Source: Folioceros fuciformis
Lineage: Eukaryota
NCBI GenBank assembly: GCA_049999805.1
Contig: JBNGIO010003086.1
Location: 1 to 46,714, forward strand
DNA length: 46,714 bases
Direction: 5' to 3'
This document shows, piece after piece, positions 10,079 through 46,714 of this stretch (position 1 is its first letter; every line of letters starts with the position of its first letter). Position numbers and translations under genes: made by a program. A model generated the notes under the pieces. That model was not told the DNA's origin. It was given only the letters and a program-made list of their open reading frames with translations, and ran no database searches.

Positions 10079-10404
10079 CGCCCCTTCCGAATGCAAAGTT
10101 CCTTCAGCCCGCACCCATCCAGCTCAGGATGGCCAATCGTTGACCTTCTCCTCGTCTGCCCATCGAATGCTCCTGCTGCTGCGCCACCCGATTCGGAAGC
10201 AAAGGACTTCCCTTCTGGGTCCAATTATGCAATGCCGATAGATCCTGTTTTGCCCCCTTTGACCGCCACGCGGAAATCAGTCGGAAAATGTCGGCATTAC
10301 CCGTCTGAACAAACGGGAGACGTTGACTCCGGTTGAATCAACGTATGCGTATGTGTGCACTATATGCTAAGTAATGCGAGTGTCCAAAACTGGGTCCGGC
10401 ATGC

Positions 10405-18493: not shown

Positions 18494-18569
18494 TTCCGGA
18501 GTAGCGAGATGACTAGCCACCCAAGCTGTCTTGTACGACTTCGTCAACAAGAGAAACTCCGGCGCATCG

Positions 18570-19173: not shown

Positions 19174-22100
19174 TCAAGAGATGCCCAGTGACCTGCCTAA
19201 AATCACCTTGTCCAGTTTTGTTTGGCTCCGTGGATGGTTCTCATCTCGCACCAAGAAGTTGTGGACCAGCCCGTCCTTGTCCGTCCACCAGCTCTGACCA
19301 GGCTGCTTCCATGCCCTGATGTGTTTTCTCCTTGCCTGCATTTTCAAGGTCTCCTCCCACATCTGGGCACCGGTGTATATGGTCGACATCAACACATACG
19401 CTTCGGCATCTTTGTTGTCCAGCTTCACTGCTTGATCGAAGGCGATGCGTCCGACCTCCACGTTGCTCCACTTTCGACAAGCACCCAACAGTGAGTGCCA
19501 GACTGCAGCATCAGCCAGGACAGGCATTGCTAACGCTAGATCTAGGGCCTCATGCAGTTGTCCTGCCCGGCCCAAGAGATCCACCATGCATGTGAGGTGT
19601 AGTGCCGTAGGAGTGATGCCCTGGAATCTGCTCATGGCCCGGAAGTACTCTCTCCCCTTGTCAACAAGACCCGCATGACTGCAAACTCTTAACACACTGA
19701 GAAACGTGATGCCGTCTGGCTGTATGCCATCTTCCTTCATTTTGTGAACCAAATCGAACACCTTTTCACTGTTTCCTTGACAGGTGTAGCCTGCAATCAG
19801 TGAATTCCACACGACAGCGTCTCTTTCCTGCAATGAGTTGAACACCTTCTGTGCCTCAACGACACTACCACATTTTCCATACATGTTTATCAGGCCCCCA
19901 GCTAGAAACAAATCAGGTTGAAACCCTCGTCCCTCTATCTCTGCATGTAGCTGCCTTCCGACATGCAAGGCTGCCACATTTGCACATGCCTGCAGGAGGC
20001 AGGCAAATGTTACGGCGTTGGGTACAGCAATGCCCTCTTCTTGCATATCACTATATAGACGAAGGGCTTCCTGCCCCATGCCCTGCTTGGAATATCCCGC
20101 AATTATAGCTGTCCATGTCACAGAATCTTTGTCACAAAGGCCATCGAACACTCTCTGAGCATCGGCCAAGCTGCCACACTGTGCATACATGTTGACCAAA
20201 CTGTTCGCCACGAATACGTCAGCTTGATGTCCTCCTTCTCTAATTTGAACATGAAGCTCCTTTCCCTTCTCCAACGCCGATGTGCCCATACTTGCACAAG
20301 CTTGTAGAAGACACGTAAACGTCACAGAATCCGGAACTGCGATGGCCTCCTCTTGCATAGCACTGTAAAGATGAAGGGCTTCCTGACCCATGCCCTGTTG
20401 TGAATGTCCTCCTATCATAGCATTCCACGTCACCACATCTTTATGGGGTAGTCTGTCGAACACCATCTGTGCATCTGCTAAGCTGCCACACTTTGCATAC
20501 ATGTTCACCAAGCTGTTAGCTACAACAACATCAGCTTGACATCCTCGTTCTTTACTTTGTACATGAATCTTCTTCCCCATCTCTAAAGCTGGGGTACCTA
20601 AACCAGCACATGCCTGCAGGAGGCAAACAAATGTCACCGAATCAGGTACAGCAATGCCCTGCTCTTGCATAGCCGTGTAGAGGCAGATGGCTTCCTGCCC
20701 CATGTACTGCTGGGAATACCCTGCAATCAGAGCAGTCCAGGTCACCACGTCTTTTTGGACGAGGTTATCAAAAACTCTTCGAGCATCGTCCAAGCTGCCA
20801 CACTTTGCGTACATATTCACCAAACTGCTGGCTACAGACACATCAGCTTGTTGTCCCTGCTCTCTAATCTGGGCATGAAGGCGCTTCCCCTCTTCCAAAG
20901 CTTGGTTGCCCACACTCGCACATGCTTGGAGGAGGCATACGAAGGTCACAGCATTGGGTACAGCTTCACCTTCTTCTTGCATAGCAGTGTACAGACTAAG
21001 GGCCTCCCGTCCCATCCCCTGCTGGGAGTACCCTGCCAACATAGTATTCCAGGTGATCACACCTTTTTGGCCGAGTCCGTTGAACACTCTCCGTGCATCT
21101 TCCAAGCTGCCACACTTCGCATACATGTTCACCAAACTGCTGGCAACAACCACATCCGTTTCGTAGTCTCGCTGTCTAATTTGTGAATGAAGTTGCTTCC
21201 CCTCCTCCAAAGCTAGGGTGCCAACACTTGAACATGCCTGCAGGAGAGACACAAATGTCACAGAATCGGGTGAGACAAAACCTTCATTTTGCATTGTGCT
21301 GTAAAGACCAAGCGCTTCATGGCCCATGCCCTGCTGAGAATATCCTGCTATCATGGCATTCCATGTCACCACGTCTTTCTGAACAAGTCCGTCAAAGACT
21401 GCTTGGGCGTCTTCCAGGCTGCCACATTGTGCATACATGCTGATCAGACTATTAGCTATAAAAACATTAGCTTGATGCCCTCGTTCTCTTATTTGTAAAT
21501 GAAGCTGCTTACCCTTCTCCAATGCGCCGTTACCCACCCTTGCACATGCCTGAAGGAGGGACAAAAAGGTCATGGAATCCGGTACAACAGTAGCCTCTTG
21601 TTGCATTACGCTGTAGAGTTGAAGGGCTTGCTGGCCCATGCCTTGCAGGGAGTATCCTGCTATCATGACATTCCACGTCACCACATCTTTATAAACGAGT
21701 CTGTCAAACATGCTCTGAGCATCTCCCAAGCTGCCACACTTTGCATACATGTTTACCAAACTGTTTGCTACAACCACGTCAGCTTCATGCCCTCCTTCCC
21801 TAATTTGTGCATGAAACTGCTTTCCCTTCTCTAAAGCAGAGGCGCCCACACTCGCACATGCCTGCAGAAGGCACACAAAAGTCACGGCATTGGGCGTAAC
21901 TATAGCTTCTGCTTGCATAGCACTGTAGAGGCGAAGGGCATCTCGCCCCATGCCCTGCTGGGAATACCCTGCAATCAGAGCAGTCCAGGTGACGACCTCT
22001 TTTCGGCTGAGTCCGTCAAAAACTCTCTGGGCATCTACCAAGCTGCCACACTTTGCATACATATTCACCAAACTGCCAGCTACAGACAAATCATCTTCAT

Positions 22101-23229
22101 ATCCTCCGTCCATAATTTGGCCATGAAGCTGCCTTCCCTTCTCCAGAGCTTGGGTGCCCACACTCGCACATGCCTGCAGGAGGCACACAAAGGTCACAGA
22201 ATCGGGTACCGCAACACCCTCCTCTTGCATAGCATCGTAAAGACCAAGAGCTTCCTGGCCCATGTTCTGCTGGGAATACCCTGCAATTAAAGCAGTCCAC
22301 GTTACCACATTTTTCCTATCCAGTTCATCAAACACTTCTTGAGCATCTGCCAAGCTGCCACACTTTACATACATGTTCACCAAGCAGTTACAGACAAACA
22401 AATCAGGCGCAACCCCACTGGCCAACACATCAGCATGCACCTGCTGCCCAGATTTCAGGTCCGATCCCCTCGCACACGCTTGAAGGGCTGCCACCAGTAC
22501 ATGTCCATCTGGCTTCACACCCGACCGGCGCATTCGATGGTACAGTTCTATTGCACCATGCACTTCCCCCGCTTTAACATGCGCAGAAATAACCGCAGAC
22601 CACGTGAAGGCATCCGGTTTGCCCACCATTCCAAACACATCCATCGCGTCTCGCAACCTGCCATGAGCAGCGTACATTCGCAAAATATGGTTGCCCAGGA
22701 ATGTATCCGACTGATACCCCTTCCTCACCGTCAAAGCGTGCACCCGGCGACCCAAAACAAGATCCTTCGTCAACGTACATTTCTTCAGAACAATTTGAAA
22801 AACAGATTTGGCAATACAACAGTCTGCCTGCACCAGCATCCCCAGAGCCTCAACGGCTTCACGCAGATGCCCCTCATTACACAGCTGGCTCACGGTCTGA
22901 TCCGTTAAGCCCCTATCATACCCTGCGTTCCTGCCTAGGCAAGCATCATCAGCCAACCTCCAGTCCGAAGCAGACCGACCCATCTCCACATCCAAAGCGC
23001 CACCCCAAGCTGCCTTGCAAAGTTGAACCTCCTGAGACTGCCTGTGCCCAATGCCAGGCCAACGGAGGCTCCTCTCGATGCACCATCCTTGCTTCCTTGA
23101 AGCCGGGCGAACCGGAGCTCTCCCTCGACTGCCAGCCAGCCCACCAATTTCCTGGGTCCCCACAAACTGTCCCCACAACGGATTCTGTTGCCCCCCGCGT
23201 GCCTGAATTGCAGCACTCCCGACAGCCAT
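19174..23229 (-). CDS. PLS-class PPR protein (E1-E2 plus WW-type PG box, no DYW)
   Basis: Intronless 1351-aa ORF with an Arg/Ala/Ser-rich N-terminus (possible transit peptide). Eight central S-P-L triplets, HLTCMVDLLGRAG, then AWKQPGQSWWTDKDGLVHNFLVRDENHPRSQ and a stop shortly after. Confidence 0.95.
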   Translation of the reverse strand: MAVGSAAIQARGGQQNPLWGQFVGTQEIGGLAGSRGRAPVRPASRKQGWCIERSLRWPGIGHRQSQEVQLCKAAWGGALDVEMGRSASDWRLADDACLGRNAGYDRGLTDQTVSQLCNEGHLREAVEALGMLVQADCCIAKSVFQIVLKKCTLTKDLVLGRRVHALTVRKGYQSDTFLGNHILRMYAAHGRLRDAMDVFGMVGKPDAFTWSAVISAHVKAGEVHGAIELYHRMRRSGVKPDGHVLVAALQACARGSDLKSGQQVHADVLASGVAPDLFVCNCLVNMYVKCGSLADAQEVFDELDRKNVVTWTALIAGYSQQNMGQEALGLYDAMQEEGVAVPDSVTFVCLLQACASVGTQALEKGRQLHGQIMDGGYEDDLSVAGSLVNMYAKCGSLVDAQRVFDGLSRKEVVTWTALIAGYSQQGMGRDALRLYSAMQAEAIVTPNAVTFVCLLQACASVGASALEKGKQFHAQIREGGHEADVVVANSLVNMYAKCGSLGDAQSMFDRLVYKDVVTWNVMIAGYSLQGMGQQALQLYSVMQQEATVVPDSMTFLSLLQACARVGNGALEKGKQLHLQIRERGHQANVFIANSLISMYAQCGSLEDAQAVFDGLVQKDVVTWNAMIAGYSQQGMGHEALGLYSTMQNEGFVSPDSVTFVSLLQACSSVGTLALEEGKQLHSQIRQRDYETDVVVASSLVNMYAKCGSLEDARRVFNGLGQKGVITWNTMLAGYSQQGMGREALSLYTAMQEEGEAVPNAVTFVCLLQACASVGNQALEEGKRLHAQIREQGQQADVSVASSLVNMYAKCGSLDDARRVFDNLVQKDVVTWTALIAGYSQQYMGQEAICLYTAMQEQGIAVPDSVTFVCLLQACAGLGTPALEMGKKIHVQSKERGCQADVVVANSLVNMYAKCGSLADAQMVFDRLPHKDVVTWNAMIGGHSQQGMGQEALHLYSAMQEEAIAVPDSVTFTCLLQACASMGTSALEKGKELHVQIREGGHQADVFVANSLVNMYAQCGSLADAQRVFDGLCDKDSVTWTAIIAGYSKQGMGQEALRLYSDMQEEGIAVPNAVTFACLLQACANVAALHVGRQLHAEIEGRGFQPDLFLAGGLINMYGKCGSVVEAQKVFNSLQERDAVVWNSLIAGYTCQGNSEKVFDLVHKMKEDGIQPDGITFLSVLRVCSHAGLVDKGREYFRAMSRFQGITPTALHLTCMVDLLGRAGQLHEALDLALAMPVLADAAVWHSLLGACRKWSNVEVGRIAFDQAVKLDNKDAEAYVLMSTIYTGAQMWEETLKMQARRKHIRAWKQPGQSWWTDKDGLVHNFLVRDENHPRSQTKLDKVILGRSLGIS

Positions 23230-24000
23230 GGCTGCCAGGAGCTATCTGGTAAGGCCTCCAGCCTGTAAGATGCGAATCCTGTAGGCTCACATTCTTCGTG
23301 TCCTGGTGATGGATTATCATGCTATCAGCAGTGCTCTGAAGGTGTCCATGAATTTCGCCGTGCAGTGATTATCAGACACGCTTTTCAGAGAGAATCTGTC
23401 GACACCGGCCCCTCGACAGCAAGCAACATTGCTTCCACAAAACGTGTCCTTGAGCACGGAACGGAACATGAATCTGACCAACAGGAATCCAAATTCGAGA
23501 GGACGGTATCGCTTACAGTAATACGAGGAATTACTGGGTTTTGTCTGGAAGGAGAGAGAGTCTAGAGAATTCTTCACTAGGCGTCCAAGCTTTGCTTGCT
23601 ATTTCATTGGGTGGAAAGTTGTAGAAACGGAAGTCTCCAGAAGGCACGTCTGAACACATTACTGCCACACTCGCTCTACGCGCAAGTGTATTGCATTCTT
23701 CGCGCACGGAGGTCCGCTTGCGCGCACACGTTGCGACGCTGAACCATCTCTCTCTCGCACATCGATTGGCTTGCGCGGCCGCCACCTCTTCTGGTATGTC
23801 GCTGCACTGCACCCTCCTGCCCATTGCAGCTGAAGCTACGGGCAGTTGGTTGGAGGCGGTTCTTTCCCGCTCTCAGCCGTATCTGAACGCCGCCGCGGCT
23901 AGTACTCGATTTCTCTCCGTCGCATGCTACTGAGAAGCTGCTCTTTTCCTCGGTTTTGTGCAGAGTCTACTGCCAGGGGGCTGCTTCCTGCGGTGTTGCA

Positions 24001-29794: not shown

Positions 29795-32724
29795 ATGGCG
29801 AGGGAAATGGCAGTGCAACCCTTGGTTAAGCTTGCAATTGCTTGCCTCGTCGTGGCCCTTGGCCTGGCTTCACAAGCGTCTGCCACATCTTCGTATGAAG
29901 ACAAGGGCCCCTACGAGGTGGACAAGGGACGCAAGGGATCGCAACCCATCACCCACTACTACGACTGGAAGGTTAGTGTGTACTCCAGATCTAGATCGAA
30001 GTCCAGAACTCCTCCTGAACAACCAGCGGCTGCGATGGTCGTGAAACATGTTTGAATTGCGAGCTCACCAGCTCACCTCATGAATTCATGTTAGACTTAT
30101 CGTAAGATGGATATATCTGGCCGCAACGAAACTCATGAGTTCGAGTGGTGCATTCCCGCCAACAGGTGCAGTACGTGAATGTGACTCGGCTATGTCGTAC
30201 CAAGCCTCTCGTCACCATCAACGGCCTATTCCCCGGCCCTCCTGTCTACATTAGAGAGGACGACAGAGTTATCATCAAAGTGACCAACGAGGTTCCATAC
30301 AACGTCACGCTCCACTGGTACTGGGCCTTCCTCGCCACCTTTATACAACGCAACGCGTTTGGAGTTCAAGTCAGCGGAATCGTTCCTGAATTGAACTCCA
30401 CCGACTCCAGGAACTTCCAAGTTCCTGAATTGAGCCCCACGAGCTCCAGAAACTTCGGAGTTCCTGAATCCGATTTGAATTCGATTATTCTGGATGGATC
30501 CTGTCGGCTGAGGCTGACATTGCGCAAATTCCGTTACTGCAGGCACGGAGTAAAGCAAGTGCTACAGAACTGGCAAGATGGCCCGGCGTACATCACTCAG
30601 TGCCCGATCCAGACAGGAGATTCCTTCACTTACGACTTCGTCGTGGGCAGCAGTCAGCGGGGAACCCTTTGGTGAGTGCCACGACCGTTTTCTGTCATCC
30701 ACGATTATTTTGTCAACTCTCCCAGCTGGAATGCTTTTCTAAGATCTTCGTACTGCTATCGTGTGAACGTATGCACATGGCTACTAGATGGATCGTTTGA
30801 CAGTCTTAGCTTACATGGCTTCACGAATTTTTATTGCATCTTTCCCGGAAAAACCTACGCCGGCACCCGGCCCACATCATATTCGTCTGGAATTGCGTGC
30901 CTACTGTCAAACGTTGAGCAACACATTGATGTGGAATTCGTCTGCAGGTACCACGCTCACATCACATGGCTACGAGCCAGCCTTTACGGAGCCTTCATCG
31001 TCCTTCCCAAGAAGGGAGTTCCCTACCCATTTCCCAAACCCGATGGGGAGCAAGTTATCCTATTCGGTACGATCGTGGCTTCCGTCCATCGCCAGTTGTC
31101 GGATGCAATCTCTGTTTCCTTGAGCTTTACACTCATGCGAATTGTTCTTTATCCTGGCAGGAGAATGGTGGAACGCGAACTACGAAGACGTGGAAGCTGC
31201 AGCCATCAGAAGAGGCGCTGGTTACAACATCTCAGATGCCCTCTTGCTGAATGGCCAGCCCGGCAATGGCTACAACTGCTCATCTCAGGGTGCGTATCAA
31301 ATTCTACCCAATGGCATGGATGATCAGTGACATGATAGTTCTTGGAACACACCCGGGCTGTCTACTGATCAGAAGGAGGTTGTGGTGGATCATGGCAGAC
31401 ACCACGGTTGTCCAAGTGGAGTACGGAAAGACGTACCTGCTCCGACTGATCAACTCCGCGATGAACTTCGAGCAGTACTTCAGCATATACAACCACAACC
31501 TGACTGTGGTAGAAGCCGACGGCGAGTACACCAAGCAGCTGAAAGAGTCCGTGGTGCTGCTGACACCAGGCCAGTCATTGAACGTGTTGGTGAAAGCCAC
31601 TCAAGCAGGAGGAGGAAGGTTCTACATTGCGACCAGCGTGTGGTCCCCGGCTCCAGTGAGGTCCGTCCCCTTCCCCACCATATCGGCCACAGCCATTCTG
31701 GAGTACGTGAAGCCCAAGACCGATCCCAAAAAAATGTCACCCTCCCAGCTGCCCACCTTCCCTGCGTTCAACGACAGCGCGTGGGCCTTGGACTTCGACG
31801 AAAAGATCAAATCCTTGGCCAGCAAAGAGTTTCCCATCAGCGTGCCCAAGAACATCAGCCCAGACACTGACCTGCTGTTCACGGTGGGATACAACGTGCA
31901 ACCTTGCAATCCCACCGACGGCTGTGGGTTCAGCAACGGCACAGCCAAGCTGGTCACCAGCATTAACAACATCACATTCGAGGAGCCCAAGAGGTCCCTT
32001 CTTGAGGTAAAATGAGGCTTCTTCGGTCATTGTTACCCCTTTTTGCAAGCAACCGTTCTGAGACTCAGACTGATTTGATACGGTGCTGGTGCTTTGAACC
32101 CAACAGGCCTACTTCAACCATGTAAACAACATCTACTCATCGGACTTCCCCGATGACCCTCCCTTCATCTACAACTTCACAGGAACCGTTGTGCCCGCCA
32201 ACCGGCAAGGGCAGAGGGGGACCAGGCTAAACGTTATCCCATTCGGATCTGAGGTGCAGCTGGTATTCCAGAACACCAACTTGGTTTTCTTTGAGAGTCA
32301 TCCTTTCCATTTGCACGGCTTCAGCTTCTACATCGTGGGCTCTGGATTTGGTACCTTCAATGCCACCGAGGACCCCAAACATTTCAACCTCGTAGACCCA
32401 CCTCTCCGCAACACGGCTGCCGTCCCTGCTGGAGGATGGACTGCCGTACGTTGGAAAGCAGACAACCCCGGTACAAATTTACTCAACACTCTCATCAATT
32501 TCAATAACCTGGGCCTGACCTTGACCAATTTTTCACATCAGGACTGGTGTGCATTCTGTGCTCACAACAGCGTTGTTTGTGTAACTGCTGCAGGTGTCTG
32601 GTTCATGCATTGCCATCTCGAAATCCACACCTCGTGGGGCATGGCTATGGGCTTCATCGTGCAGAACGGGCAAGGGCCCCTCGAGACCCTGCCTCCTCCA
32701 CCTCCCGGCATGCCCAAGTGCTGA
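29795..32724 (+). CDS. LAC: Laccase (multicopper oxidase), secreted, multi-exon, apparently intact
   Basis: Signal peptide [18 protein letters not shown]. Copper motifs TLHW|HG, TLW|YHAH, HPFHLHG and [15 protein letters not shown] (axial Met). Ends PPPPGMPKC*. Confidence 0.95.
30382..30469 (+). repeat. 39-bp tandem repeat (~2.3 copies) inside a laccase intron
   Basis: gttcctgaat starts at 30382, 30421 and 30460, within intron 30318-30542. Confidence 0.8.
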
Positions 32725-34130: not shown

Positions 34131-36170
34131 TTAGCACTTGGGCATGAAGGGAGGTGGACCTGGGAGAGTTTCCTCGGGTCCCTTTCCATCCTTGACGATG
34201 AATCCCATAGCCATACCCCACGAGGTGTGGATCTCGAGATGGCAATGCAAGAACCAGACACCTGATACACACACGACACACAGATGAGAACAAATGCTAA
34301 GGTGCCTAGGCTCGGGCGAATTTATCACACTGTCAAATGCTGTATACACAAATTACCTGGATTGTCAGCTTTGAAACGAATGGCACTCCATCCACCAGCA
34401 GGCACGGCGGCTGTGTTACGAAGAGGTGGATCCTTGAGGTTGAAGTCCTTGGAGTGCACTTTCTCATCAAAGGTTCCGAATCCAGAGCCCACAATAAAGA
34501 AGCTGAAGCCGTGAAGATGGAAGGGGTGGCTCGAGAAGAAGAGGGAGTTGGAATTTTGGAAAACCAGTTGCACGTTTGCTCCGAACTTGAGAACATTCAG
34601 TCTCGTCCCATTCTCACCCAGAAGGCTGGCCGGCTTCACCGGTCCAGTGAAATTGTACACGTTCTTGGGGGTATCTGGAAAGTCGGTGGCGAACACCTTT
34701 TTCTCCCTGAGGTAGTAAGCCTGTAGCACAGCCATCCAGTTAGAGATGCACTGCATCTGAAGGTGGGAGTCAAGTTTGGGACAGAGGACAAAGGGAAAAC
34801 ACTCGCCTCCAGAAGAGATCTGGTTGGGGCAACAAAAGTGATGTTGTTGATGCTGGTTCTGATCCTGAAATCTCCGCCTGGTGTAACTCTACCGCATCCT
34901 TCCCCAGGTTTGCACGCCTCAAGATTATAGCCGACGGTGAATATCTGGTGTTCGTCCAACTTCTTGGGCACCGAGATAGGGAACTGCTTGTTGGCCAGAG
35001 ACCTGATCCTGTCATCGAAATCGAAAGCGAACTGACTGTCGTTGAAGGCAGGAAACGTGGGCAACGCAGACCTCTTCTGCTTGCCATGCTTGGGCTTGGG
35101 CTTCACGTACTCCAAGATGGCGGTGGCAGGCGTAGTAGGGAAAGGGACGGAACTGATCGGGGCAGAAGACCACACGCTGGTGGCGATGTAATACTCCCCT
35201 CCCCGTTTCTGCGTCAAAAATAAAGCTGATGAAGACAAGCGTCTCTTCGGCGTCAGGCTTGGGGAAAGGGTACGGGACGCCCTTCTTGGGATAAACGATG
35301 AAGGCGCCGTAGAGCGTGGCTCTGAGCCAGGTGATGTGAGCATGATACCTGCGATTCGTACGGAGGATAGGAATTGAGCACTGCTTCAGAGCGAGTCCGG
35401 CTACGCAGCAACCAAAGTTCGGTCGTGAAGCCGAGGGAGTCGAGATAGCGCGGTTGACACAAACTCACCACACGGTTCCCCGCTGGCTGTGATCCACCGT
35501 GAATCGGTAGGTGAAGGATTCACCGGGCTGGATGGGGCACATTGTCACATACGCGGGTCCGTCCTGCCAGTTCTGAAGCACCATCTTTAGGCCGTGCCTG
35601 CAGACACAATACAATGTCATCGCCGTTATTTGGCATGGGCGATTGATGTGCGCGACAAGAATTTTGTTCTCATCTCATCTCCAAAAAGTCTGGAAGGGAG
35701 GATTCCGATATGCAGGATTCTGCAGGGTATACCAGTGGAGTGTGACATTGTGCTCTACGCGATTGGTGACCTTTATGACCACGGTGTCATCTTCTCGGAT
35801 GTGGACAGTAGGTCCTGGTAACTCATTGTTGATGGTAACGATCGTCTTGGACTCGCAGAGTCTTGTGACATCGGTATTCACGATCTGCAACCCACACAAA
35901 CCAATTTCCAATTAGAGCCCAAAAGACTGCAATGTGTGAATGCATACGCCCGGCACCCGATCGCAATCCCCATACCGATCCCGATCCCGGGCGCGTCGCC
36001 AGGCCCATGGTTCATGTAAGCACCTTCCAATCGTAGTAATGCGTGATGGGCTCGCTGCCCTTTCGTCCCTTATCTAGATCATAAGGCTTTTCGTTCTAGT
36101 ACGTGATGTTGGCCGCCACGCTGGTGGACAGGAACACCAGGGCCAGCAGAAGAGCGGCCACCTGGGCCAT
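34131..36170 (-). pseudogene. LAC: Laccase paralog with a premature stop and an internal deletion/frameshift
   Basis: ATG at 36170. In-frame TAG at 36098-36096 (NITY*NEKPYDLDKGRKG vs [17 protein letters not shown] in the intact copy). After [11 protein letters not shown] the sequence jumps near 35213-35230 to [12 protein letters not shown] in another frame, losing GEWWN...LNVLVK. Copper motifs are otherwise retained; ends PPPFMPKC*. Confidence 0.88.
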
Positions 36171-36353
36171 TGAGGTGGTTGCTTCGTGGTTGTTTCCACT
36201 ACATTGTCTCCTCTTGTTGCCTGAAAACAACGGTCATGATCTAACCACTAGTGTTTGCAAGTCAAGTGTCATGCCTTAGGGTAAGGCCAATGCTAGTAAA
36301 GTGGAGACCCCTGTGGTTGCACACATGCCACATCAAGACACTTGTTACAAAAA

Positions 36354-36597
36354 CTATGATAGACTAGGGAAGCACTTGTTGCCTCTGCCAAATCAGCATG
36401 TTGAGTAGTAATATAGCATGCAGCCTCTACGACAATCTTTGCGCCTCTTCTACACTAATCTCATCCACGAGCAAGCTATGATAGACTAGGGAAGTACTTG
36501 TCACCTCTACCAAATCAGCATGTTGAACAGCTATGTTGCATGCGGACTCTATGTCAATCTTCATGCCTCTTCTAAACTAATCATGTCCATGAGTAAG
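36354..36597 (+). repeat. 122-bp diverged tandem duplication (2 copies)
   Basis: ctatgatagactagggaag starts at 36354 and 36476, with continued similarity across the unit. Confidence 0.85.
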
Positions 36598-36599
36598 CA

Positions 36600-37600
36600 T
36601 TTTTGGTAATGGTGCCTAGGGAGCTTTGGTTTTTGGTCACCGAACAAGGGGCAGACCATGACAAGCAACACCAAATCAAGAACACCATTGAAGAAGGAGG
36701 TTTCCTTACTCATAATTATCTTAGCAGTTACTTGGCCAAAGAATGAATAGACAAATTGTCTATTCGCACTTCCAATGCCCACATGAAACCTACTTTAAAA
36801 CACGCTTACATACCTTGTTTCTTCTTATCAGACTCGGCTCTTATGTTCCTTTTCAGGTAGTCACAAGTTGTGCATAGCGAAAGCCTATTGGTCTTCAGAA
36901 TTCGCACTTTGTGGAAATGTGAAGCCCTCAATTGACAGAAATAAGAGTAACACACACTGTACTGTTCCGCTCATTGCATTTGCCCCTTGTACTCCAAAAA
37001 CATTTCCTCTTTTGTGTACGAGTCTAGAAGATGATACACTTCAATGTTCGGCATGTGTTCTACTAGTAGCAAAAATAATTGATCTGTCTCAACACATGTG
37101 GCCATAGCGTGGTCTTGGGTGCGCTTCTCTGCACAGATAGAGCCCACCCACACAATGTTATCCAAAGCTCTTTCTTTCGCCGCCTCGTGCCTATTCGCAC
37201 CGATACAAAAAGCTCATCTAAAGGCGTCCGAACAACAGCATATCTTTGCAGATCCAATCAAAAAAGTCTCCGCTGTAGAGCGTCCATCTGTAGCACGATT
37301 GACATCGAACAAGGTGTGCAAAAACATTTCTTACTCTGTCCTGCACATGTTAGAAACCAGTACCTCAAATCCCGAAAGCCTGGTTTACCTAAGGATCTAA
37401 GACACTACTTACCACAACATATCCTACAGTAATCTGTAGAAATACGGATCTCAGAGCACTTTGCGTCAGGTACAGTTGAGATTTTTTTCTTTCGACTGCG
37501 TCGATGATCTCCAGGAGCTTTAATCAGAGATTTGGATGATGGTTTTAGATTGTATGCTCTTTGCACCGTTGTGCCAATCATCCTGCCAGCTTCTTCGGAC
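36600..37600 (-). pseudogene. Cys-rich DDE-transposase-like relic (resembles Sola-type/DUF7869-associated proteins, from memory), truncated before most of the catalytic domain
   Basis: Minus strand reads ICCGK*CLRSLG...LRYWF, EHMPNIEVYHLLDSYTKEEMFLEYK..*..CYSYFCQLRASHFHKVRILKTNRLSLCTTCDYL, and later DQKPKLPRHHYQK. This follows the MP..HLP...TK..VY / F..LW...FP.V.IPK..RFS.C..C / DGMDQ.K..LP pattern of such transposases. Confidence 0.55.
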
Positions 37601-38209
37601 AACGCATCCGCTCCTTCACCTTTGGCATGGAATCACTCCCCACTTGATGTTCCTGGTACCCAACTTCCACTCGCATGTACTTCCACATCTAGATTAACAA
37701 CGTTAGTGTGCAAGATTGTGCCCTCCGCATTCCGCTTGATAGGTGTTGTTTTCCGGATCGCTGGCCTGAAAGGAGATTGTAAGCGCAATGGGCTTGTTGA
37801 AGTATGGATGTCGTCGAGAAGACTAAGGCGAATAGGCGAAGCTTGGAAGTCGATGTCGGTACCTTCTGAATCATCGACTACAAAGCATCATGACGCGAAC
37901 AGAAAACTCTAACATAGACTTCCAACTAGAACACACGAATGCCCTTCGCAAACCGAATTCCTCGCCTACCCTAAGAGTTGAACTCCACTGTTGTCATCGC
38001 CACCATCTCATGTGAGGAAGAAGCCTACCAATCCATGCCAATGTCTCAAGGATTGCTCGCAATGACCTTTCTTACAAGATGCAAGCTAATGTCACTCAGA
38101 GTTTGATTGAAGACAGGGTTACATTGGCATAATTAAGCCGCCACTTGAATATGAACGTTTGATCACATAACAAATAGCTGTTGTTGGTCTTAAATGGCGC
38201 CTACAATCG

Positions 38210-38330
38210 TTGTTGTGGCATAAATGCTGGAGATGTAGTTCAAACACCCTTGCTATTTCAGGAAACAGAAAGACTTCAAATCTCATTGTTCATTGCTTAA
38301 GACATCATTCTCTCCTTCTAGATCAGACCA
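38210..38330 (+). other. BED-type zinc-finger-like coding remnant
   Basis: HKCWRCSSNTLAISGNRKTSNLIVHCLRHH fits CxxC..(G)xxxTSNLxxHxxxxH. Confidence 0.5.
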
Positions 38331-39770
38331 GTTGTTTTCAAGTTCCATCGTTCACAGGCTCTCCAGCGCAATCGAAGATGGCAGTTGACCGGCGGAGCAA
38401 CAAGCAGCTGAATGCGGCCATTAACTTGCAAGCATTGGAGGCACCACCAAGGTTGAAGAAACCACGATAGGGTGCGAAAGCTTCAGCTCGCGCTGCTTCT
38501 GGCCCATTCGTGGAAAGAGATAGCCATCGGCGACCAGCGATCACAATAGGGGATGTTACACCACAGCCACCAATTATTACACTGAGAAGAGACAATTCCG
38601 CCGGGAGCGTCCGTGCCTCGAACAACAAAGCTAGTGAAGTTCATATTAACCATGTTCATGTTCATGTGACTCAAGGTGGTAGCACGGGTGGTAGCCAAAA
38701 CCGCAACATTCCAAATGCATACAACTTTGTTGAGCGTTAAAAGGTAAAAAAGCTTGAAGACACGCTTGCCAAAAGATTCAACACAGACAAAGAGTGGTTT
38801 TTAGTCATAGTAGAGGTGCCAGAAGACTGCAATTCGCCTTGGGTGTTGCTGGTGGCTATGTGGGTTAACGGTTTCCAAGGCTTGCAGGACGATGAGGCAG
38901 GGAGGCCCGGATGGATTCTGTGTGCATCTATTGACGGCGTGGAAGAGGAAACCCATGTCAATTTCATATGCAAGCGGCACCCACCAAGCCATATCACCGA
39001 TGACTAAAGCCACAGCCTCATTGTAGTCAATGTCGCGAAAGCTGTGCCACAGCGCTACGAACCGGTGTGGCTAAAAACCGCTTTAAAAGATTGCTTGGAA
39101 GTGGAAGATGTTAGTATTTATTTATTGTAATGTCGGTTTATGTTTATAAACCCAGCATTAGGTAACCCTAAAATTTCCATAACATGTTCCCTACAGGGAG
39201 GCGAACAGTTCTGTTGGACTATCTTGCATTGTGTTGCTGATTGCGTTCTGAAGAATCATGTGTTAGCATCCAGAATCGCAGGAGAGCGCCAAAGGGTTTC
39301 AATCCAAGCAGAGTTCGGCCCCATCTCATCAAGGCCAAAGGAGAGGGTTGAGAGACCGGTGGAAATGCCGCTCATGCAGCTAGAGCTTTCAGAAGATGAC
39401 ATCCCTAACCCCAGAATAGCTAAGCGGTGAGGAGGAGAAAGAGATGGGAGAGTATTCCTCCACGGAAGACAGCTTGAATGAAGCCGTAGATGCGGCACGA
39501 GGCTTAGGAGAGGAGGAAGATGGTGAAGAAGATTCACTAATAGAGATATCCCCATCTCGAAAGAAACTGAAGACGGCGCACCGGGCTACTGGCGCCCCTG
39601 TGCAACGGAAGAGGAAGGTTGCAACTACCTCTCCCTCGAAGATGCGGAAGAGAAACACAGGTTATTGTTATATACTCACCCGTTGTTCTTTCTGTTCTCT
39701 TGTGTGAAGAAACTGTTATCTTGGGATGCCACAGACGCTGACATCTTGCCTAACAATGAGAACTGTTTCA

Positions 39771-41060
39771 GTGGCAGCTACTTCACCGCAGAAGAGGAAG
39801 AACAGGATGGCAGGTCCTGTAAGTGAAGGAGCTGCTCAGCGTAAGCAGAGGCGGAAGGCCCAAGGTCCTACTTGCGAAGAGGAGCCGCCACGGACAGTGG
39901 AGACAGACGCAGAAAGAATGGAGAGAGTTGCGCAAGATGAAAATTATTTGAATGCAGTTCGCAGAAAAGCCCATGCCAAACGGATTCGATCAACAACGTT
40001 TGATCTACATGTCGACATCCTGCATCCGGCCAGTTACATTACAGCAGATGCATAGATACGGGAGGTAGATGAAGCGTGGATGAAGTGCCTGGTCAGGCAG
40101 ATGCATTCAAGGTCAGTGAAGGAAGCATTTTGCCTCTCCTTTGCATGATAGATCCCAAACAGGCTTCTAAGAAAGAAAATGTTTCACTGGACAAGATCAC
40201 AGTGCAACAGTACCAGATGGGAGTGCTTGGAGGAAACCACTGCTTCGCAGCTATTCAGAAGCTGCACTAGATGTACCTAGCTGAGGACAAGTACGAATGG
40301 ATGGAGGGGCATGTTTATGCAAGACTGACAGATGAGAAAATGCGAGTCCTCGCAGTGAATCATAATGTGTATGCAGATAAGTGAAAGAGAATGGGCTGCA
40401 TTGAGCAAGTTCGGTATATCCACGACGAGCTGGATATCTTCCATAGGAAACATGGCTTGGATGAGAAGCCCCCTGTGAAGTGGAAGTTCAATCTCTATAG
40501 GTTGCTCGGGATGACAGATGAAGCAGGTGACCCTCGAGACACTGACTGGGTGCAGAAGATGGTAGACAGGTAGACATTACCATATCGGGTGGCCAAGTGT
40601 AGTGGGATTCTATGGGAGAACGAGACATGATATCAAAATGTGGGAGAAGAGTGAGCTTCCTGCATAGATAGCAGGAGGAAGCTCTGGGACAAAGAAGCGC
40701 GCAAAAGCAAAGAGGAAACCTGGGGAAGCTGGACTCGCTTCTAGTAGTACGCCAATGGTAGACGAGTCTTCGAAGAAGGTTGCAGCAATGCAGGGCAGGC
40801 CTTGGAGGGCTTTTCAAGGAGTCTCGGCAGGTGTTAAAGGCAAAGAGATGCTTATTGCGGTGACACAAAAGGTTAACCAGGGGAAGCTGCACCTCAAGGA
40901 CATGGACACAGAGGTGGGCAAGAGGAAACGAATCCATCTCATCCAACATGCTTTCAAGATGGTTTTGAAGTGCGCAACGTTTGAGGAAGCGAAAGTGTTG
41001 TATCCCAAGCATACGGAAAATGCACATCTCCTCAGATTCCATACCGCATTCGCAAAAGTG
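39771..41060 (+). pseudogene. ParB/Sulfiredoxin N-terminal-like domain and helical region (5' part of the ParB-MTase gene)
   Basis: *IREVDEAWMKCLVRQM.. / SILPLLCMID...YQMGVLGGNHCFAAIQKLH*..YEWMEGHVYARLTDEKMRVLAVNHN resembles the ParB-N pattern (R..D...V..L; IxxGNHRxxA; LA...N). GGNH at 40229-40240; stops at 40053, 40268, 40382. Donor GTAAGC at 41061. Confidence 0.65.
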
Positions 41061-41176
41061 GTAAGCTTTCTTTCAGATCCCTTAGGTTTTTTTCAGCATG
41101 CTGGTTGAACTGCGCCATAGACGGGCGTACTCTAACTAATTTCTCTTGCACACGCTACCCAGCGCGTTCCGGAAAA

Positions 41177-41428
41177 TGGCTGGAGTGCGCCGGTAGACCA
41201 GTGCACTCCAGCCAGACATCCACTCTTCTACAATTGTTACGGTTTTCCTTACACAATGGCTGGAGTGCGCCGGTAGACCAGCGCACCCTAGCCATTTTCT
41301 CTGGAATGGGTCTTTGTTTTCCATCGTTTTCTATTAAAGTGGCTGGAGTGCGCCGGTCTCCAACCACTTTCACAAGAAGGCATATAGATTGGGGGGGTGT
41401 GCGCCGGTCTACCGGCGCACTCCAGCCA
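41177..41428. repeat. Clustered GC-rich palindromic repeats (tggctggagtgcgccggt-ag-accggcgcactccagcca consensus) in an intron
   Basis: Copies at 41177-41214, 41257-41294, 41340-41359 (half) and ~41398-41428 (inverted). Followed by tttagggtttaggg at ~41446. Confidence 0.85.
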
Positions 41429-41530
41429 CGAGAAGAGTTTTTCTCTTTAGGGTTTAGGGTCAACATAGTTCTCGATTTATGATTGTGCTTGTGGTGTGGT
41501 TGTTCTTCTGACCAAACTGTTTGTTGGCAG

Positions 41531-42706
41531 AAACCCACGGAATTCAGTGAACTTGAATCATTGCCGAAGCCTTTCCAAGATAATGTGTATTCAGCGAGAA
41601 GCATGGAAGAGGAAAAGCAGAAACTCGTTGACCCAGATATGGATGCAAGATTATTGGAGTTTAGGGTCCTAAGTAGCAACCAGAAGACTAAGTATCAAGT
41701 AATCCAGCCAAACATTTTGGAGATGAACGCATTTATGGTAAAACGACCTTATACTCTGTTATTCGTTGATTTGCCTCGCGGACTGCAACGCCATGAATTC
41801 GACAGGCAGCTAACAAGAAAAGAGCTTGAAGACATGATTAGAGGGTTTTTCAGAATGCACGAGCAGTAATGCTTATAGGATGGTCCTCATGTATGGCGTG
41901 GACCTCATTACACAAGCTAGGGAAGCACTTCAGCCATGTTGCAAGAAGGGAACCATATAGACATTAGTATGGGGGAGAAGACCAACATTCCTCCCAATGC
42001 AGGGGCAGTTGAGACTGTGGAGTATTTAAATGTTGGAAGTGCAGTTCACTCTAAAGCTCAGGCCACAAAAGCTGCATTATTCGCGAATCAGGGATTTCTT
42101 TTGCCGAGAGTTATAAGGCATGGAGCTGTGGTAAAGAAACATCTGTTCCACTCGGCAGACTCTATGGTCGTCTCGCCGTATCAAAAGCCCCTTGGGTTAA
42201 TGGGTATGTTGGTCAATATGTTTTCGGCTGAAGGAGACTGGGTAGTGGATGGGTGCGTAGGATTTGGGTCATTCCTTCAAGCTGTGATTCAAAGAGGAAG
42301 GCATGTTGTCGCGATGGACATTAATATACGATGCACGACTTATATGATGCAGAGAGTGAATGGCATATGCTCTTTGCTAGACGCTGATGAGGAGATCAGC
42401 ACAAACCACTTCTCACACGAGCCCACGAAGTTTTGGGCCAAAGAAGTCTGCGCGGCCGGTAGCGTGGATCGTTGTATGCAGGTATTCAATTTGCTGGGGA
42501 AAAAAGGGGAGATATTTTCTCAATCGAACGACAGACCAGCGGAAGATCTGTATGTGATGATGATATGGGATGAGAATGGCACACTTCCGCCTCAGACTGT
42601 GGACAACCCACATTTGTATGTCCTCGACGTGGAGGGACAACGCCTCAAAGATGTAGATATAGTTGTTGATTCCGAGGCCAACCAAGGAATTCATGTTTTG
42701 GTGTAG
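41531..42706 (+). pseudogene. Beta-class N6-adenine/N4-cytosine DNA methyltransferase-like domain (N6_N4_Mtase type), disrupted
   Basis: Motif IV-like YTLLFVDLPRG (DPPY equivalent, D at 41768) precedes SPYQKPLGLMGMLVNMFSAEGDWVVDGCVGFGSFLQAVIQRGRHVVAMD. This matches HPxQKPxxLxxxLIxxxSxxGDxVLDPFxGSGTxxxAAxxxGRxxIGxE (motifs X, I, II), i.e. beta order. In-frame stop at 41867. Confidence 0.75.
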
Positions 42707-42827
42707 AGGTGATTTGGAAAGTAGCTGAAGTTCGTGGTACATTATGCGTATATTTAAATTCGACTGATAAACCCTTCAAATTCATGGCATGTAGATAGCC
42801 AACTTCCTGTCACCCAAATATACTATT

Positions 42828-42853
42828 GAGTGCGCCGGTAGACCGGCGCACTC
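42828..42853. repeat. Further copy of the GC-rich palindrome (perfect 12-bp arms)
   Basis: gagtgcgccggt-ag-accggcgcactc, about 120 bp downstream of the MTase stop. Confidence 0.85.
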
Positions 42854-43229
42854 GAAGTACGATTTGTTTTTCCTTGAAATTTCCATAGTTCTAATAACTT
42901 ATGTACCAGTTGGTTGTGGGTTGAAAGCAAATTTGTGGAGATTGATGGTGTCCACCACAAGTCAAAACAAGTGATTTTTTTAAAATACGGCTTAAATGAA
43001 AATATGTGACTAGGATGGTGTAAATTCAAACGGGCTTCATAAAATACGACCGTTAGGCACAAAACTTGTTTTTCCAATACCACAATCAATCTACTCATGA
43101 TCCCATGTTATTTATATATATACATTCAATTTAACAACATTGTATATATTCAACGAGACTAATTCCTATTAATCTAGTTTATATACGATGCTTACTATTC
43201 ATGTATATTATGTAGTGATGTACATGGTA

Positions 43230-43693
43230 ATCACCTCTCCTATCATTGTTGTCGTTCTATATGTAGCATTAGCCCCGAACTTGGGAAGTACCAATAGCAT
43301 ATGAAATATTATGGTCTAGATGAAGGAATTGTCTACTACCATTGGAGTAGCAGACGCCATCTCTCTTGCCATTGTCGTCCTCTTGCATATGACTAGTGCT
43401 GGAGTCGCCAACGCCAACAGGAGAATATTGGAGTCGCTGACATCGACATGAGAATGTTAGAGTCGCTGACATCACCTCTCCTATTGTTGTTGTTGTTCTA
43501 TAAATCACATTAGCCAACACGCATTGTAGTGCAATAGAAATCCTATGCTGAAAGCACTACAATACACGAAATAAAAAATAATTTTATTTTTCAAATCGCC
43601 TTGGCACAAGACTTCGAAAACTTAGAAAATGCCTTGTATTTTTTAAATCGGCTTTGCACAAGACTTCAAAAACGTGGAAAATGCCTTTGCACA
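43230..43693. repeat. Cluster of short repeats: 45-bp direct pair, 10-bp inverted pair, 52-bp tandem pair
   Basis: atcacctctcctat...cattagcc at 43230 and 43471; attgtagtgc/gcactacaat at 43523 and 43554; aaatcg..gcacaagacttc.aaaac at 43593 and 43645. Confidence 0.7.
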
Positions 43694-46529
43694 TACCATA
43701 CGTGGGATAAAGGAGTATCAGCTTATGGAGGGGTGTGGAGTATCAACTTGTGAAGGGGTGTACTTGGGAATATGGGGTGTATGTGTGAAACTTGTGGAGA
43801 TGTACTTGTGAATTTGGAAGGTACGTGTGAATCTTAGCTAATGAATTTCCTTCTACTTCCCAATCGGACAACATGTTGGCAGACAAAGCGTGTCTCCGAC
43901 GATTATTTATCTCTTTTTGGTTTTCCGCATCAAACTAGCGTTCCATATTCTCCTCAACAAAATGGACGTGCTGAGATTCGAAATAAAATTCTTGTCACTG
44001 CTGCTCGCCAAATGTTATTTCACATGAGTGTGTCTCCTCTGTTTTGGGCTGAGGCTGTTCAAACAGCTGCCTATGTTATGAATCGGGTGGTTTCTGATAT
44101 TTTATGTGGTCAAACTCATGAGGCGTTATGGATTGTGCTTATTCCTTCTTCTTTGGACCTTCGAGTTTTTGGTTGTGTCGCATATTCGCATATTCCCAAA
44201 GAAAAGAGATCTAAGCTAGATCAACGAAGTGTTCAATGTACATTTCTTGGTTATTGTGAGAATTCTTCAGGACATCGTTTGTTTGATCCACAAACACGAT
44301 AGATTATTTTGGGTAGAGATGTTATTTTTTGTGAAAACTTGTCTTGGAAGGATATTATGCAAAATTCTCGTCAATTGTGAATGGAATCAGCTGATGATTT
44401 TGTTTTCCATCAGTTTCCATCTTTACTACCTATATCAGATGATGATTCATATATGTTTGATGAGGTTTTGGATCCTCTTGATGTTCAGCCGGAACATAAT
44501 CCTGTTGTTCATGCTCATTTGAATGCCGTCTCTGGGAATTCCACTGATCATGTTTCAGGTGCTTCTTTATCAATAGCATCATCTCCACGTGACAATCAGC
44601 TTCTGCCTCAAGTTTCTGGTCCTCAAGTACACACACCTCGTCGTTCTGGACATTTACGTACTCCTTCTCGAGGACAACTAGAATCTTTGGAGACACAAGA
44701 TTTTATTGCTCTTCTCTCTGCTCCTTTACCGGAGCCACAATCTTTGGCTAAGGCTCAAGCTTCTTCAGATTGGCCGCTTTGGGAGAAAGCTTTACAAGAT
44801 GAATGAGATTGTTTATTGGAGAATAATATCTGGGATACTGTTTCTCTTCCATCAAGTCGCAAACTAGTTGGTTGCAAATGGGTTCTCAAAATCAAATACA
44901 ATGCTGTTGGGACTATAGAACGTTACAAAGCCCGGTTGGTTGCCAAGGGCTATTCACAAGTTGAGGATGTTGATTACAAGCAGACTTTTTCTCCGGGGGT
45001 CAAACTGCCTTGTATTCGACTTCTTCTTGCTCTTGCTGCCTATTTTGATCTTGAGATGTGTCAAATGGATATTAAGACTGCTTTTCTAAATGGAGATTTA
45101 GATGAAGAGATTTACATGGAACAACCGCCGCCATTTAATGATGCTATGCCATTTAATGATGCTATGCGACGTTCTATATAACCTGGTTTGGTTTGTCGTT
45201 TGCGAAAAAGCATATATGGCTTGAAGCAACCTCCCCGTGCATGGAACTTGATACTACATTCTATTCTTATTGCACATGGTTTTATTCGGAGTTTGGCTGA
45301 TACTAGTCTATATATCTTGTGTCAGCAAGATTCTTATCTTTATATTGGTGTCTATTTTGATGATCTTATTCTTGTCTCTCCTCAACTCCAACTTTTTCAA
45401 TGGGTTTTCTCTTTTCTTTCAACTACTTTTGTTCTGAAGTCTCTTGGTGCCTTGGGTTATTTTCTTGGTGTTTGTCTTGTATGGGACCGATCACGTCATC
45501 TTATGTGGCTTTCTCATGAGAAGTATCTTGAGAATATTTTACAGCACTTTCATATGCAGGATTCTCGTCCTGTTTCTACTCCTCTTGTGCCTTCTTCTTT
45601 ATCCTCTTCCAATCTTGGCAATTTTCCTTTACTTTCTTCTAAGGACATTGAGTCTTATCAAAAGGTTGTTAGCTCTCTCATGTATGCTTCTCTTTCCTCA
45701 CGTCCTGATTTGATCTCTTCTGTCAACATTTTGCGTCGGCACACTAGTCAACCTTCCATGCTTCATTGGCAATGGGCTAAGCGCATTTTACAATAGCTAC
45801 GGGTCTCTTCCAATTATGGTTTATGTTTTGGTGATTCTTTTGTTACAGCGATTGCTTCTTCATGTCTTGTTGGCCATTGCTATTCCGATTGGGTTGGTGA
45901 TAAGCTGACCCAATGTTCTACTTCAAGATATTCTTTTTATGTCTTCAATGCTCTTATCGGCTGGAGTACTAAGTCACAACCTACTGTTGCTCTATCCTCT
46001 ATTGAGGCCGAGTATATGTCTGCTTCTTATGCTACTAAGGAGGCTGTTTGGTTGCGTCTTCAGTTATAAGAACTTGGTCATCCTGAAATGCTGCCTACTC
46101 CTTTATATATTGATAGTCAAAGCAATGTTAAGGTAGCACAAAATCCGGAATTTCATCAACGTATGAAACATATTGATATTCGTATGAAACATATTGATAT
46201 TCAACATCATTATATTCGTGAAAAAGTGGAAGAAGGAGTCATTAATCTTCAATATATACCAGCAACTTCCATGATTGGAGATGGGTTTACTAAGATCCTT
46301 CCTACAACCAAGTTTAATCAATTTGTGCAATCTTTGAGGGTGGTCTCTGTGCCTAATTCTTCATCTTCTTCTGTAGCTCAGGCTAGTGATGCAGATGTTT
46401 CATGTGTTTTGTTGCCCTTGTGAAAGCCTCTAAGCATGGCTTTTTCCTCTTGATAGATTTTTCCCCCAAGGTTTTTTTGCTATCCTTGAGGTTTTTTACT
46501 GTCGCTTAAAGTGGTCCCTTGCTTAGTTT

Positions 46530-46541
46530 AAGGGGAGGGAA
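46530..46541 (+). other. Polypurine tract of the copia element
   Basis: aaggggagggaa immediately before TG at 46542. Confidence 0.8.
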
Positions 46542-46714
46542 TGTTAGGAATAGTAGATTCTGTTATAGTTTGTGATGTTAGTGGTTATTAATATTATAGG
46601 GCTTATGGCAAGTCTCAAGGGTTTGTGGACTAGACTGTAGTACTATAATAGTATAGCGGACTCTCCAAGGGTATATAAAGGGCCTCCTCTAAGGTTGGAG
46701 TATCTCCTAGGGTA
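46542..46714 (+). repeat. 3' LTR (partial, runs off the window)
   Basis: Begins TGTTAG right after the PPT and contains TATATAAAG at ~46672. Confidence 0.75.

Follow-up and report, generated by a model that had tools for sequence, protein, structure and literature searches.

The joining of a ParB-like module to a DNA methyltransferase, and its mobile context, are already known from phages and algae. In Ectocarpus, Sola1-1_Ec32 codes for an accessory protein of 1104 aa that combines a DNA-binding domain of ParB-like type with a DNA methyltransferase, and the same report proposes self-binding with self-modification for it (PMC12477816). In the red-algal Plavaka elements (EnSpm/CACTA), the preprint describes PAG2 as PF01555 plus a SET domain and PAG3 as a ParB-like domain plus a 2-oxoglutarate (2OG) oxygenase, and the inverted-repeat arrays beside PAG3 are proposed self-binding sites (bioRxiv 10.1101/2025.02.11.637652). 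Here, we describe a locus at 39.77-42.71 kb of a 46,714-nucleotide stretch of DNA from Folioceros fuciformis (contig JBNGIO010003086.1, hereafter the window), whose C-terminal half codes for a bacterial-type DNA methyltransferase. The locus is a dead gene copy of at least two exons, corresponding to a protein of about 800 residues, and has no function of its own. Together with its intron and flanking sequence, the gene belongs to a repeat that is dispersed in many copies, of which this locus is one decayed member, and for this reason we regard it as probably former cargo of a mobile element, namely a decayed accessory gene like the ParB-like/DNA-methylase proteins of the algal giant transposons.

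The likeness to the Sola1-1_Ec32 protein lies in the presence, on one polypeptide and within a repeated element, of a putative ParB-like N-terminal module and an N4-cytosine/N6-adenine (N4C/N6A)-type methyltransferase. However, the brown-algal protein is described from a curated Sola1 transposon, 21.5 kb long, that has a transposase, whereas no transposase or termini were found for the locus in the window. The inverted-repeat arrays reported by the ParB-like gene PAG3 are comparable to the palindrome cluster of the locus. Unlike in PAG2 and PAG3, where the domains are reported on two separate proteins, they are on one protein here, together with a helical middle domain and with no SET or oxygenase domain by Pfam. 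The fusions described from phages and prophages (PMC12704722), including the ParB-Tls loci (PMC4738411), likewise have an N-terminal ParB-type module followed by a beta-class methyltransferase and are linked to mobile DNA. A phage-type example, P0074, reached 23.6 bits for ParB_N (cut-off 26.3, E 5.4e-5) and has DPPYG as motif IV. In contrast, the plant family has neither a ParB_N match nor the arginine box (GGNH, GGGH, and GGCH stand instead), and it has DxPYG or DLPRG at motif IV, introns, the helical domain and a C-terminal LPDExQE tail.

The C-terminal domain shares its fold and motif order with CcrM, M.BceJIV, M1.HpyAVI, RsrI, and MboIIA. Motif IV of those enzymes is of the canonical DPPY/NPPY type, whereas another residue stands in place of the first Pro in the plant family and, in the DLPRG clade, also in place of the aromatic one. 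Among eukaryotic proteins, MpDN4MT1a/b and the bdelloid N4CMT are also PF01555-type permuted amino-methyltransferases with introns. However, MpDN4MT1 has TSPPY and consists of two host genes in tandem that are expressed in sperm, while the locus belongs to a many-copy repeat with DLPRG. N4CMT has a chromodomain and is an allelic pair, whereas the locus has a different N-terminal module and a non-SPPY motif, and Pfam found no chromodomain in the window or the relatives scanned. A survey of eukaryotic N6A methyltransferases distinguished 13 clades and reported few such enzymes in land plants; a land-plant ParB-fused beta-class enzyme is in none of the Group-1 clades or other clades as described there (PMC4738411). 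Sulfiredoxin is named as the common eukaryotic form of the ParB fold (PMC12704722). Literature searches on ParB-methylases of land plants and on PF01555 genes carried by transposons gave algal reports only; plant homologues may be listed in the supplements of the algal papers or in Iyer et al. 2011 (PMID 21507349). Not known from phages and algae are the occurrence in land plants, a motif IV of DxPYG/DLPRG, the helical domain in the middle and the LPDExQE tail.

The repeat was observed in three DNA runs (X1-X3) from one sample of the same organism, whose contigs were aligned to 39400-42800 at ≥80% identity. The runs gave 831, 647, and 541 contigs on this stretch, which are not copy numbers, and those of X1 were divided into identity classes of 85 (99% and above), 182 (95-99%), 275 (90-95%), and 289 (below 90%). 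At single positions (42252, 42456), the same alternative letter occurred in up to 20 distinct contigs of one run. The contigs cover the intron and both flanks as well as the gene. In X1, 192 of the 831 contigs overlap the stretch only partly, and a fraction of 0.11 of the aligned material runs on into unlike sequence, with 0.11-0.18 across the runs. Transitions dominated the differences in X1 (121 C>T and 134 G>A against 24-37 per transversion type). A fourth run, X4, presumably of RNA, gave 0 contigs on the stretch, which says nothing about expression. As a separate observation, many positions that are C in X1 and X2 were read as T in X3, at full depth (C>T at 263 places against 121-125); X3 looks like a bisulfite-type library, which could give the 5-methylcytosine (5mC) state of the repeat family.

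The identification of the C-terminal half as a beta-class, bacterial-type N6A/N4C methyltransferase is solid. Pfam PF01555 matched 41921-42703 with 27.2 bits, barely above the cut-off of 26.7 (E 4.4e-6), and it was found in all 10 of the 10 top relatives scanned; relatives scored 30-69 bits. A profile of five relatives matched PDB sequences of M1.HpyAVI (deposited as DpnA) at 2e-8, and of CcrM, MboIIA, RsrI, and N4C enzymes down to 1e-4. The fold test was carried out on the relative P0024 rather than on the window copy. In its AlphaFold model, the block-mean predicted local distance difference test score (pLDDT) was mostly above 90 over the methyltransferase, and Foldseek returned CcrM (6pbd, 2.4e-13), M.BceJIV, M1.HpyAVI (TM-score by target about 0.8), RsrI, MboIIA, and PvuII. 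N4CMT (8s9o, 2.6e-10) was ranked below the N6A enzymes CcrM, M.BceJIV, and M1.HpyAVI. Consistent with the permuted beta order, DLPRG (within 41756-41782) lies ahead of DGCVGFGS (42248-42271) in the window, and the relatives are alike in this.

Motif IV of the family is unusual. An earlier note on this DNA, made from the sequence alone, had looked to the homologues for the canonical catalytic motif; (D/N/S)PP(Y/F/W) was present in 0 of the 16 family proteins that reach it, and the window has DLPRG. The 16 proteins comprise eight with D(I/F/A)PYG, one with DLPYD, three with DLPRG, two with DIPHG, one with DISQG, and one with DIPST, the Ginkgo forms being DIPHG or DISQG. Asp and the second Pro are retained (the tally holds one DISQG), and Tyr is present in 9 of the 16. 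The aromatic residue of motif IV contacts the flipped base. The Tyr form is plausibly active, because some of the nearest prokaryote-type library matches carry DLPYG, which is close to the motif IV of the family. In the DLPRG clade, the replacement of Tyr by Arg may have abolished methyltransferase activity. The DLPRG column is aligned with the relatives. DLPRG is common to proteins that are only 35-50% identical to each other and therefore appears to be a selected variant rather than a product of decay. A PF01555-type domain alone is reported to be unable to separate N6-methyladenine (6mA) from N4-methylcytosine (4mC) (PMC8885841), and Asp versus Ser in motif IV has been given as a rule for the target base (PMC4738411, section 8). 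Since motif IV of the family starts with Asp, this rule favours N6-adenine over N4-cytosine.

Relatives of the locus were found in other land plants. In an exhaustive HMMER search of a protein library, the C-terminal frame of 261 residues matched 74 proteins at E ≤1e-3, the best at 3.4e-18. By the signature (N/S/C/K)-x-(Y/H/A/Q/C)-Q-K-(P/S/L), 44 of the 74 form one eukaryote-type family; 15 are of prokaryote type, carrying an HPTQKP-type signature, a motif IV of the form D-(P/L/M)-P-(Y/F), or both, and the other 15 were left unassigned. Named relatives are Gb_37443 of the gymnosperm Ginkgo biloba and MCO5611298.1 of the fern Adiantum nelumboides. Six further gene models of Ginkgo, with 58-95% identity, came from a profile search, giving seven in all, which are truncated and chimeric, each differently. 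In P0024 (789 aa), P0078, and the Ginkgo proteins P0005 and P0079, an N-domain, a helical middle and a methyltransferase follow in the order of the window, and the fern protein P0023 has the same three-part order with a shortened methyltransferase core. With tblastn, P0024 gave three collinear matches to the locus (aa 143-248 at 40097-40414, E 1e-7; aa 396-477 at 40800-41060, E 2e-6; aa 679-760 at 42110-42358, E 6e-12), and P0078 was also collinear in three matches. In addition, P0001 matched 41690-42364 (E 1e-32), P0023 matched the N-domain over aa 7-120 (E 3e-9), and the Ginkgo protein P0080 matched the helical middle over aa 371-457 (E 2e-9 with a 1.2-kb subject), ending at 41060. Most helices of the middle domain in the P0024 model had pLDDT values of 82-95. 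Because this three-part architecture recurs in Ginkgo, Adiantum and other relatives, the two halves are judged from sequence comparison to be one gene, in agreement with the earlier note. Other searches added little: the word-based protein search with P0024 alone found P0078 as sole match, the word-based search with another query found none, and a prokaryote genome scan with P0074 found nothing. A first metagenome scan gave nothing, and a second gave one 2.6-kb contig (L001) without useful context. At 1251-2284, this contig has two successive methyltransferase-like segments of the plant methylase family in different frames.

All parts of the locus are on the + strand, and their frames were assigned against relatives, partly by eye. 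The 5' coding part in frame 0 (39771-40124) contains a basic stretch followed by the start of the N-domain (FDLHVDILHP...IREVDEAWMKCLVRQM) and has a TAG at 40053; it resembles the N-domain starts of P0024 and P0079 by eye only, and tblastn found nothing significant in it. The N-domain continues in frame 2 (40127-40627; ILPLLCMIDPKQ ... VLGGNHCFAAIQKL ... HVYARLTDEKMRVLAVNHN), with stops at 40268, 40382, and 40571 and with the GGNH motif at 40223-40264, and is ParB-like by pattern only. The helical middle domain (40629-41060; DIKMWEK ... PWRAFQG ... LHLKDMDTE ... FHTAFAKV) is in frame 0, has a TAG at 40665 and extends to the intron. Behind the intron, exon 2 in frame 2 (41531-41845) holds the start of the methyltransferase and motif IV (LLFVDLPRG, 41756-41782). 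It is followed by a methyltransferase segment in frame 0 (41847-41972; NAYRMVLMYGVDLITQAREALQPCCKKGTI and, behind the TAG at 41958, TLVW), which has a 1-base and a 2-base insertion at its borders and whose likeness to P0001 was seen by eye. The C-terminal half of the methyltransferase is in frame 2 (41975-42703, with the stop codon at 42704-42706) and contains SPYQKP (42173-42190), motif I (DGCVGFGS), GRHVVAMD (42296-42319), and the tail motif LLDADEEIS (42374-42400). A possible upstream exon at 39420-39661, of uncertain membership, lies on the same strand in an open frame of 39420-39707, with GT after 39661 and an AG ending at 39770. It is acidic and then basic (KKLK, KRK; like a nuclear localization signal, NLS) and had no significant protein match, and contigs of the repeat cover 39400-39741.

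The features on which the earlier note had relied, i.e., the stops at 40053 (TAG), 40268 (TAG), 40382 (TGA), and 41867 (TAA), the GT-AG gap, the GGNH motif and motif IV ahead of motif I, are all in the sequence. Its description of a disrupted copy is right in that stops are present, and needs correction in two respects. The TAA at 41867 is merely out of frame, because the extra base at 41846 shifts the frame, and the decay is greater than described. Further in-frame stops at 40571, 40665, and 41958 bring the repaired path to at least six (40053, 40268, 40382, 40571, 40665, 41958), and the frame changes four times (0 to 2 near 40124, 2 to 0 at 40625-40628, 2 to 0 at 41846, and 0 to 2 near 41971). 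The 1-base (41846) and 2-base (41971) insertions are private to the window copy: the base at 41846 is missing from other copies in 5 (X1) and 6 (X2) contigs, and the two bases at 41971 are missing in 1 (X1) and 2 (X2) contigs. One contig in each of X1 and X2 has an extra base behind 40124 that would join frame 0 to frame 2. At 41958, other copies have CAG against TAG in the window (8 contigs in X1 and 4 in X2, from a loose-end consensus before 41973 aligned by eye). More open copies are thus very probably present in the same genome, and the intact relatives that the earlier note had placed elsewhere do have counterparts, since more intact ones exist both in other plants and among the contigs of this organism. 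Past 42637, other copies share a different continuation (5 contigs in X1, and 4 and 2 in X2), and therefore the last 22 codons may not be the usual C-terminus of the family.

The predicted intron at 41061-41530 (+ strand) is of the GT-AG type and in phase 0, with GT at 41061-41062, AG at 41529-41530 and whole codons on both sides. It was called from the splice signals and from the P0080 match that ends exactly at 41060. The relatives P0001, P0002, and P0010, called from open reading frames, start about where exon 2 starts, which is weak support for a conserved intron position. None of the 15 contig joints displayed (26 in total) skips exactly 41061-41530. Joints from other copies link 41109, 41212, and 41286 to 41399 across palindromes in the intron; other copies thus retain the predicted intron, with insertions and deletions at the palindromes. 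The palindrome cluster inside the intron (41172-41429, no strand assigned) consists of units of about 36 bp with the core GGCTGGAGTGCGCCGGT-AG-ACCGGCGCACTCCAGCC (repeat families D1 and I1-I10). Four to five of these 36-bp palindromes lie in the intron, and a further one lies 3' of the stop codon, at 42820-42859 (no strand assigned). With one mismatch allowed, 7 of the 8 matches of GAGTGCGCCGGT in the window lie within 41183-42853 (1.7 kb), against a chance expectation of 0.13.

The N-domain may be ParB-like. By eye, its pattern can be matched to that of ParB N-domains: a strand with P as its last residue is followed by a helix, by PLL-V-D and Y-x-V-GG-x-H-x-x-A, and then by VY-x-LT-x-E-x-x-x-L-x-x-HN. 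To this extent the sequence agrees with the ParB/Srx-like domain claimed by the earlier note. The profile and structure searches did not back it. With E values up to 10 allowed, Pfam ParB_N (PF02195) matched neither the pieces of the window nor any of the eight relatives scanned, and DUF6551 was reached at E 0.019-0.17, below the cut-off, only on four near-identical Ginkgo paralogs. In the protein atlas, ParB_N and DUF6551 clusters stood at 0.90-0.93, which are leads only, and hhalign of the N-domain profile against the bacterial ParB-methylase P0074 gave a probability of 0.2. PHROGs gave methyltransferase matches only and none on the N-domain. The arginine-rich nucleotide-binding box of ParB is GxxRxxA, and no Arg is found at this place in the family (GGNHCFAA in the window, GGGHSREA in P0024, GGCHSVEA in P0079, and AGTHSLIE in P0023). 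The N part of the P0024 model had block-mean pLDDT values of 34-63, and a model of the N-domain alone had a mean pLDDT of 49.8, with values below 50 for residues 1-127. A structure search with this low-confidence model gave unrelated helical proteins with Z ≤4.2, mainly covering residues 122-215; ParB entries were absent from both the structure-search list and the PDB sequence search, which is no evidence either way. The protein atlas also placed the N-domain (P0024 130-480 and P0079 262-420) beside fungal DUF3723 clusters (0.93-0.94, 161-176 shared features) and beside cnidarian and poriferan clusters, again as leads only. DUF3723 is an accessory family of the fungal Starship elements. Pfam DUF3723 had no match on the N-domain at E up to 10, which leaves the atlas link unbacked.

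A mechanism can be proposed for intact copies. The protein would consist, in order, of a basic NLS-like leader, a divergent G-G-x-H N-domain, the helical middle and a C-terminal beta-class methyltransferase with DLPRG. Its N-terminal and helical module would bind the DNA of its own element, for which the 36-bp palindromes of the intron and the 3' flank are candidate binding sites, and the methyltransferase would mark that DNA. For proteins of the DLPRG clade, the replacement of Tyr by Arg may result in a DNA binder that still binds S-adenosylmethionine (SAM) but is not catalytic. It is a rather speculative extension that an element family of land plants (gymnosperm, fern and Folioceros fuciformis) encodes its own sequence-specific epigenetic module, in which palindrome binding by a ParB-derived N-domain with the helical domain, and 6mA/4mC self-marking or DLPRG occupancy, would shield the element from host silencing, as an analogue of VANDAL anti-silencing that works by amino-methylation. 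The plant methylase family may still be active, as judged from copies in the same genome that lack the frameshifts of the window copy.

Several points weigh against a mobile element as the source of the locus. No ends could be located for the repeat unit, and copy number is the sole argument for mobility; the counts are of contigs and not of copies, and all three runs come from one sample. The window has no inverted repeats pairing both flanks and no second copy, and six-frame Pfam searches of 36000-39700 and 42700-46714 found no DNA-element transposase or integrase, only a 5'-truncated copia, although the whole element may exceed the window. In addition, the ParB fold of the N-domain is unproven, the palindromes could be an unrelated insert resembling a miniature inverted-repeat transposable element (MITE), and the locus is likened to the algal accessory proteins by description, not by sequence. 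Tandem or segmental amplification of a host family would give the same contig picture. The locus would then be a pseudogene of a non-mobile family, in which land plants had domesticated a ParB-like/methyltransferase gene that then multiplied by such duplication, and we consider this unlikely but worth serious attention. It would agree with the spliceosomal intron structure and nuclear-type leader, with the members in gymnosperm, fern and Folioceros fuciformis alike, with the lack of transposase and termini in the window, and with the retention of DLPRG among 35-50% identical proteins, which suggests selection. However, hundreds of contigs at 80-99% identity span the intron and non-coding flanks, and the partial X1 contigs (192 of 831) and the fraction of 0.11 running into unlike sequence are as expected of dispersed copies. 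The transition-rich substitution spectrum looks neutral, the Ginkgo models are truncated and chimeric in varying ways, and look-alike clusters of the N-domain occur in the unrelated Cnidaria, Porifera, and Ascomycota (protein atlas; leads only), which also speak against a host family.

Two further origins can be set against the accessory-gene reading. That the locus is the remnant of an endogenous viral element, of the giant-virus, virophage, or polinton-like kind, or of DNA from a phage with a ParB-methylase fusion, is improbable, even though fusions of a ParB fold with an N6_N4 methyltransferase are described as enriched in phages and prophages (PMC12704722), the methyltransferase matches phage families such as phrog_67 (1e-14 to 1e-21), and DLPYG is found in the nearest prokaryote-type matches. 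The phase-0 GT-AG intron is kept by other copies, the GC content equals that of the neighbouring plant DNA, and six-frame Pfam found no other viral hallmark gene in the flanks. The family profile gave two weak loci in IMG/VR (33-36% identity over about 60 residues), and among 50,697 phage records the N-domain had a single tblastn match, at E = 1. The earlier note had proposed a 6mA/4mC writer family of prokaryotic origin, with a disrupted copy in the window; read in this way, the locus would belong to a low-copy host writer comparable to DN4MT1/N4CMT. The Pfam family and beta order are indeed shared with those enzymes, the N4CMT structure 8s9o is among the fold matches (2.6e-10), and the family is found in Ginkgo and a fern. 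Ginkgo and ferns have motile sperm. Nevertheless, this interpretation was not supported, as the locus is a single member of a dispersed repeat that shows at least 20 distinct copies at single positions, and we consider it highly improbable: the stretch is high-copy in Folioceros fuciformis, motif IV is DLPRG or DxPYG against TSPPY in DN4MT1, Pfam found no chromodomain, and in the fold search N4CMT comes after CcrM, M.BceJIV, and M1.HpyAVI.

The 6mA and 4mC marks reported from plant DNA are hard to assign to enzymes. If the reading as an accessory gene is true, an element-borne PF01555 family in Ginkgo, ferns and Folioceros fuciformis would be a candidate source of such marks, and the algal class of self-binding, self-modifying transposon accessory proteins would be extended to land plants. 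Motif IV, with its conserved replacement of Tyr by Arg, would offer a natural comparison of active and inactive forms. In addition, caution is advisable where the annotation of a large plant genome has gene models of bacterial-type DNA methylases, since these may belong to the cargo of repeats and not to the host.

The window is plant nuclear DNA. It contains three PPR genes, all of them long, free of introns and with E motifs, as well as a fragment with an NB-ARC domain and exons for a multicopper oxidase. Up to 43 kb, the window has a GC content of about 0.45-0.55; beyond, the value is about 0.38-0.40. NCBIfam gave no match below E 0.04, and an Rfam scan of 36000-46714 found no family. The three PPR open frames are uninterrupted and clustered in 13 kb (10375-15129 on the + strand, and 15797-18613 and 19174-23241 on the - strand; 1584, 938, and 1355 aa), and all have a C-terminal E motif. 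The NB-ARC domain (E 5e-26) is in an open frame at 8690-9781 (-) and is probably a piece of an NLR resistance-type gene. The multicopper-oxidase exons at 30139-32724 (+) and 35675-35911 (-) are laccase-like (Cu-oxidase_3, Cu-oxidase, Cu-oxidase_2), with a second laccase-like N-terminal piece recognized by eye on the opposite strand. In the stretch poor in open reading frames upstream of the methylase gene, a 122-bp unit is present twice in tandem with 80% identity (36351-36594). A 5'-truncated Ty1/copia polyprotein at 43838-45796 (+), with an integrase SH3-like domain, RVT_2 and stops, begins about 1.1 kb past the methylase stop codon, where the GC content falls to about 0.38-0.40.

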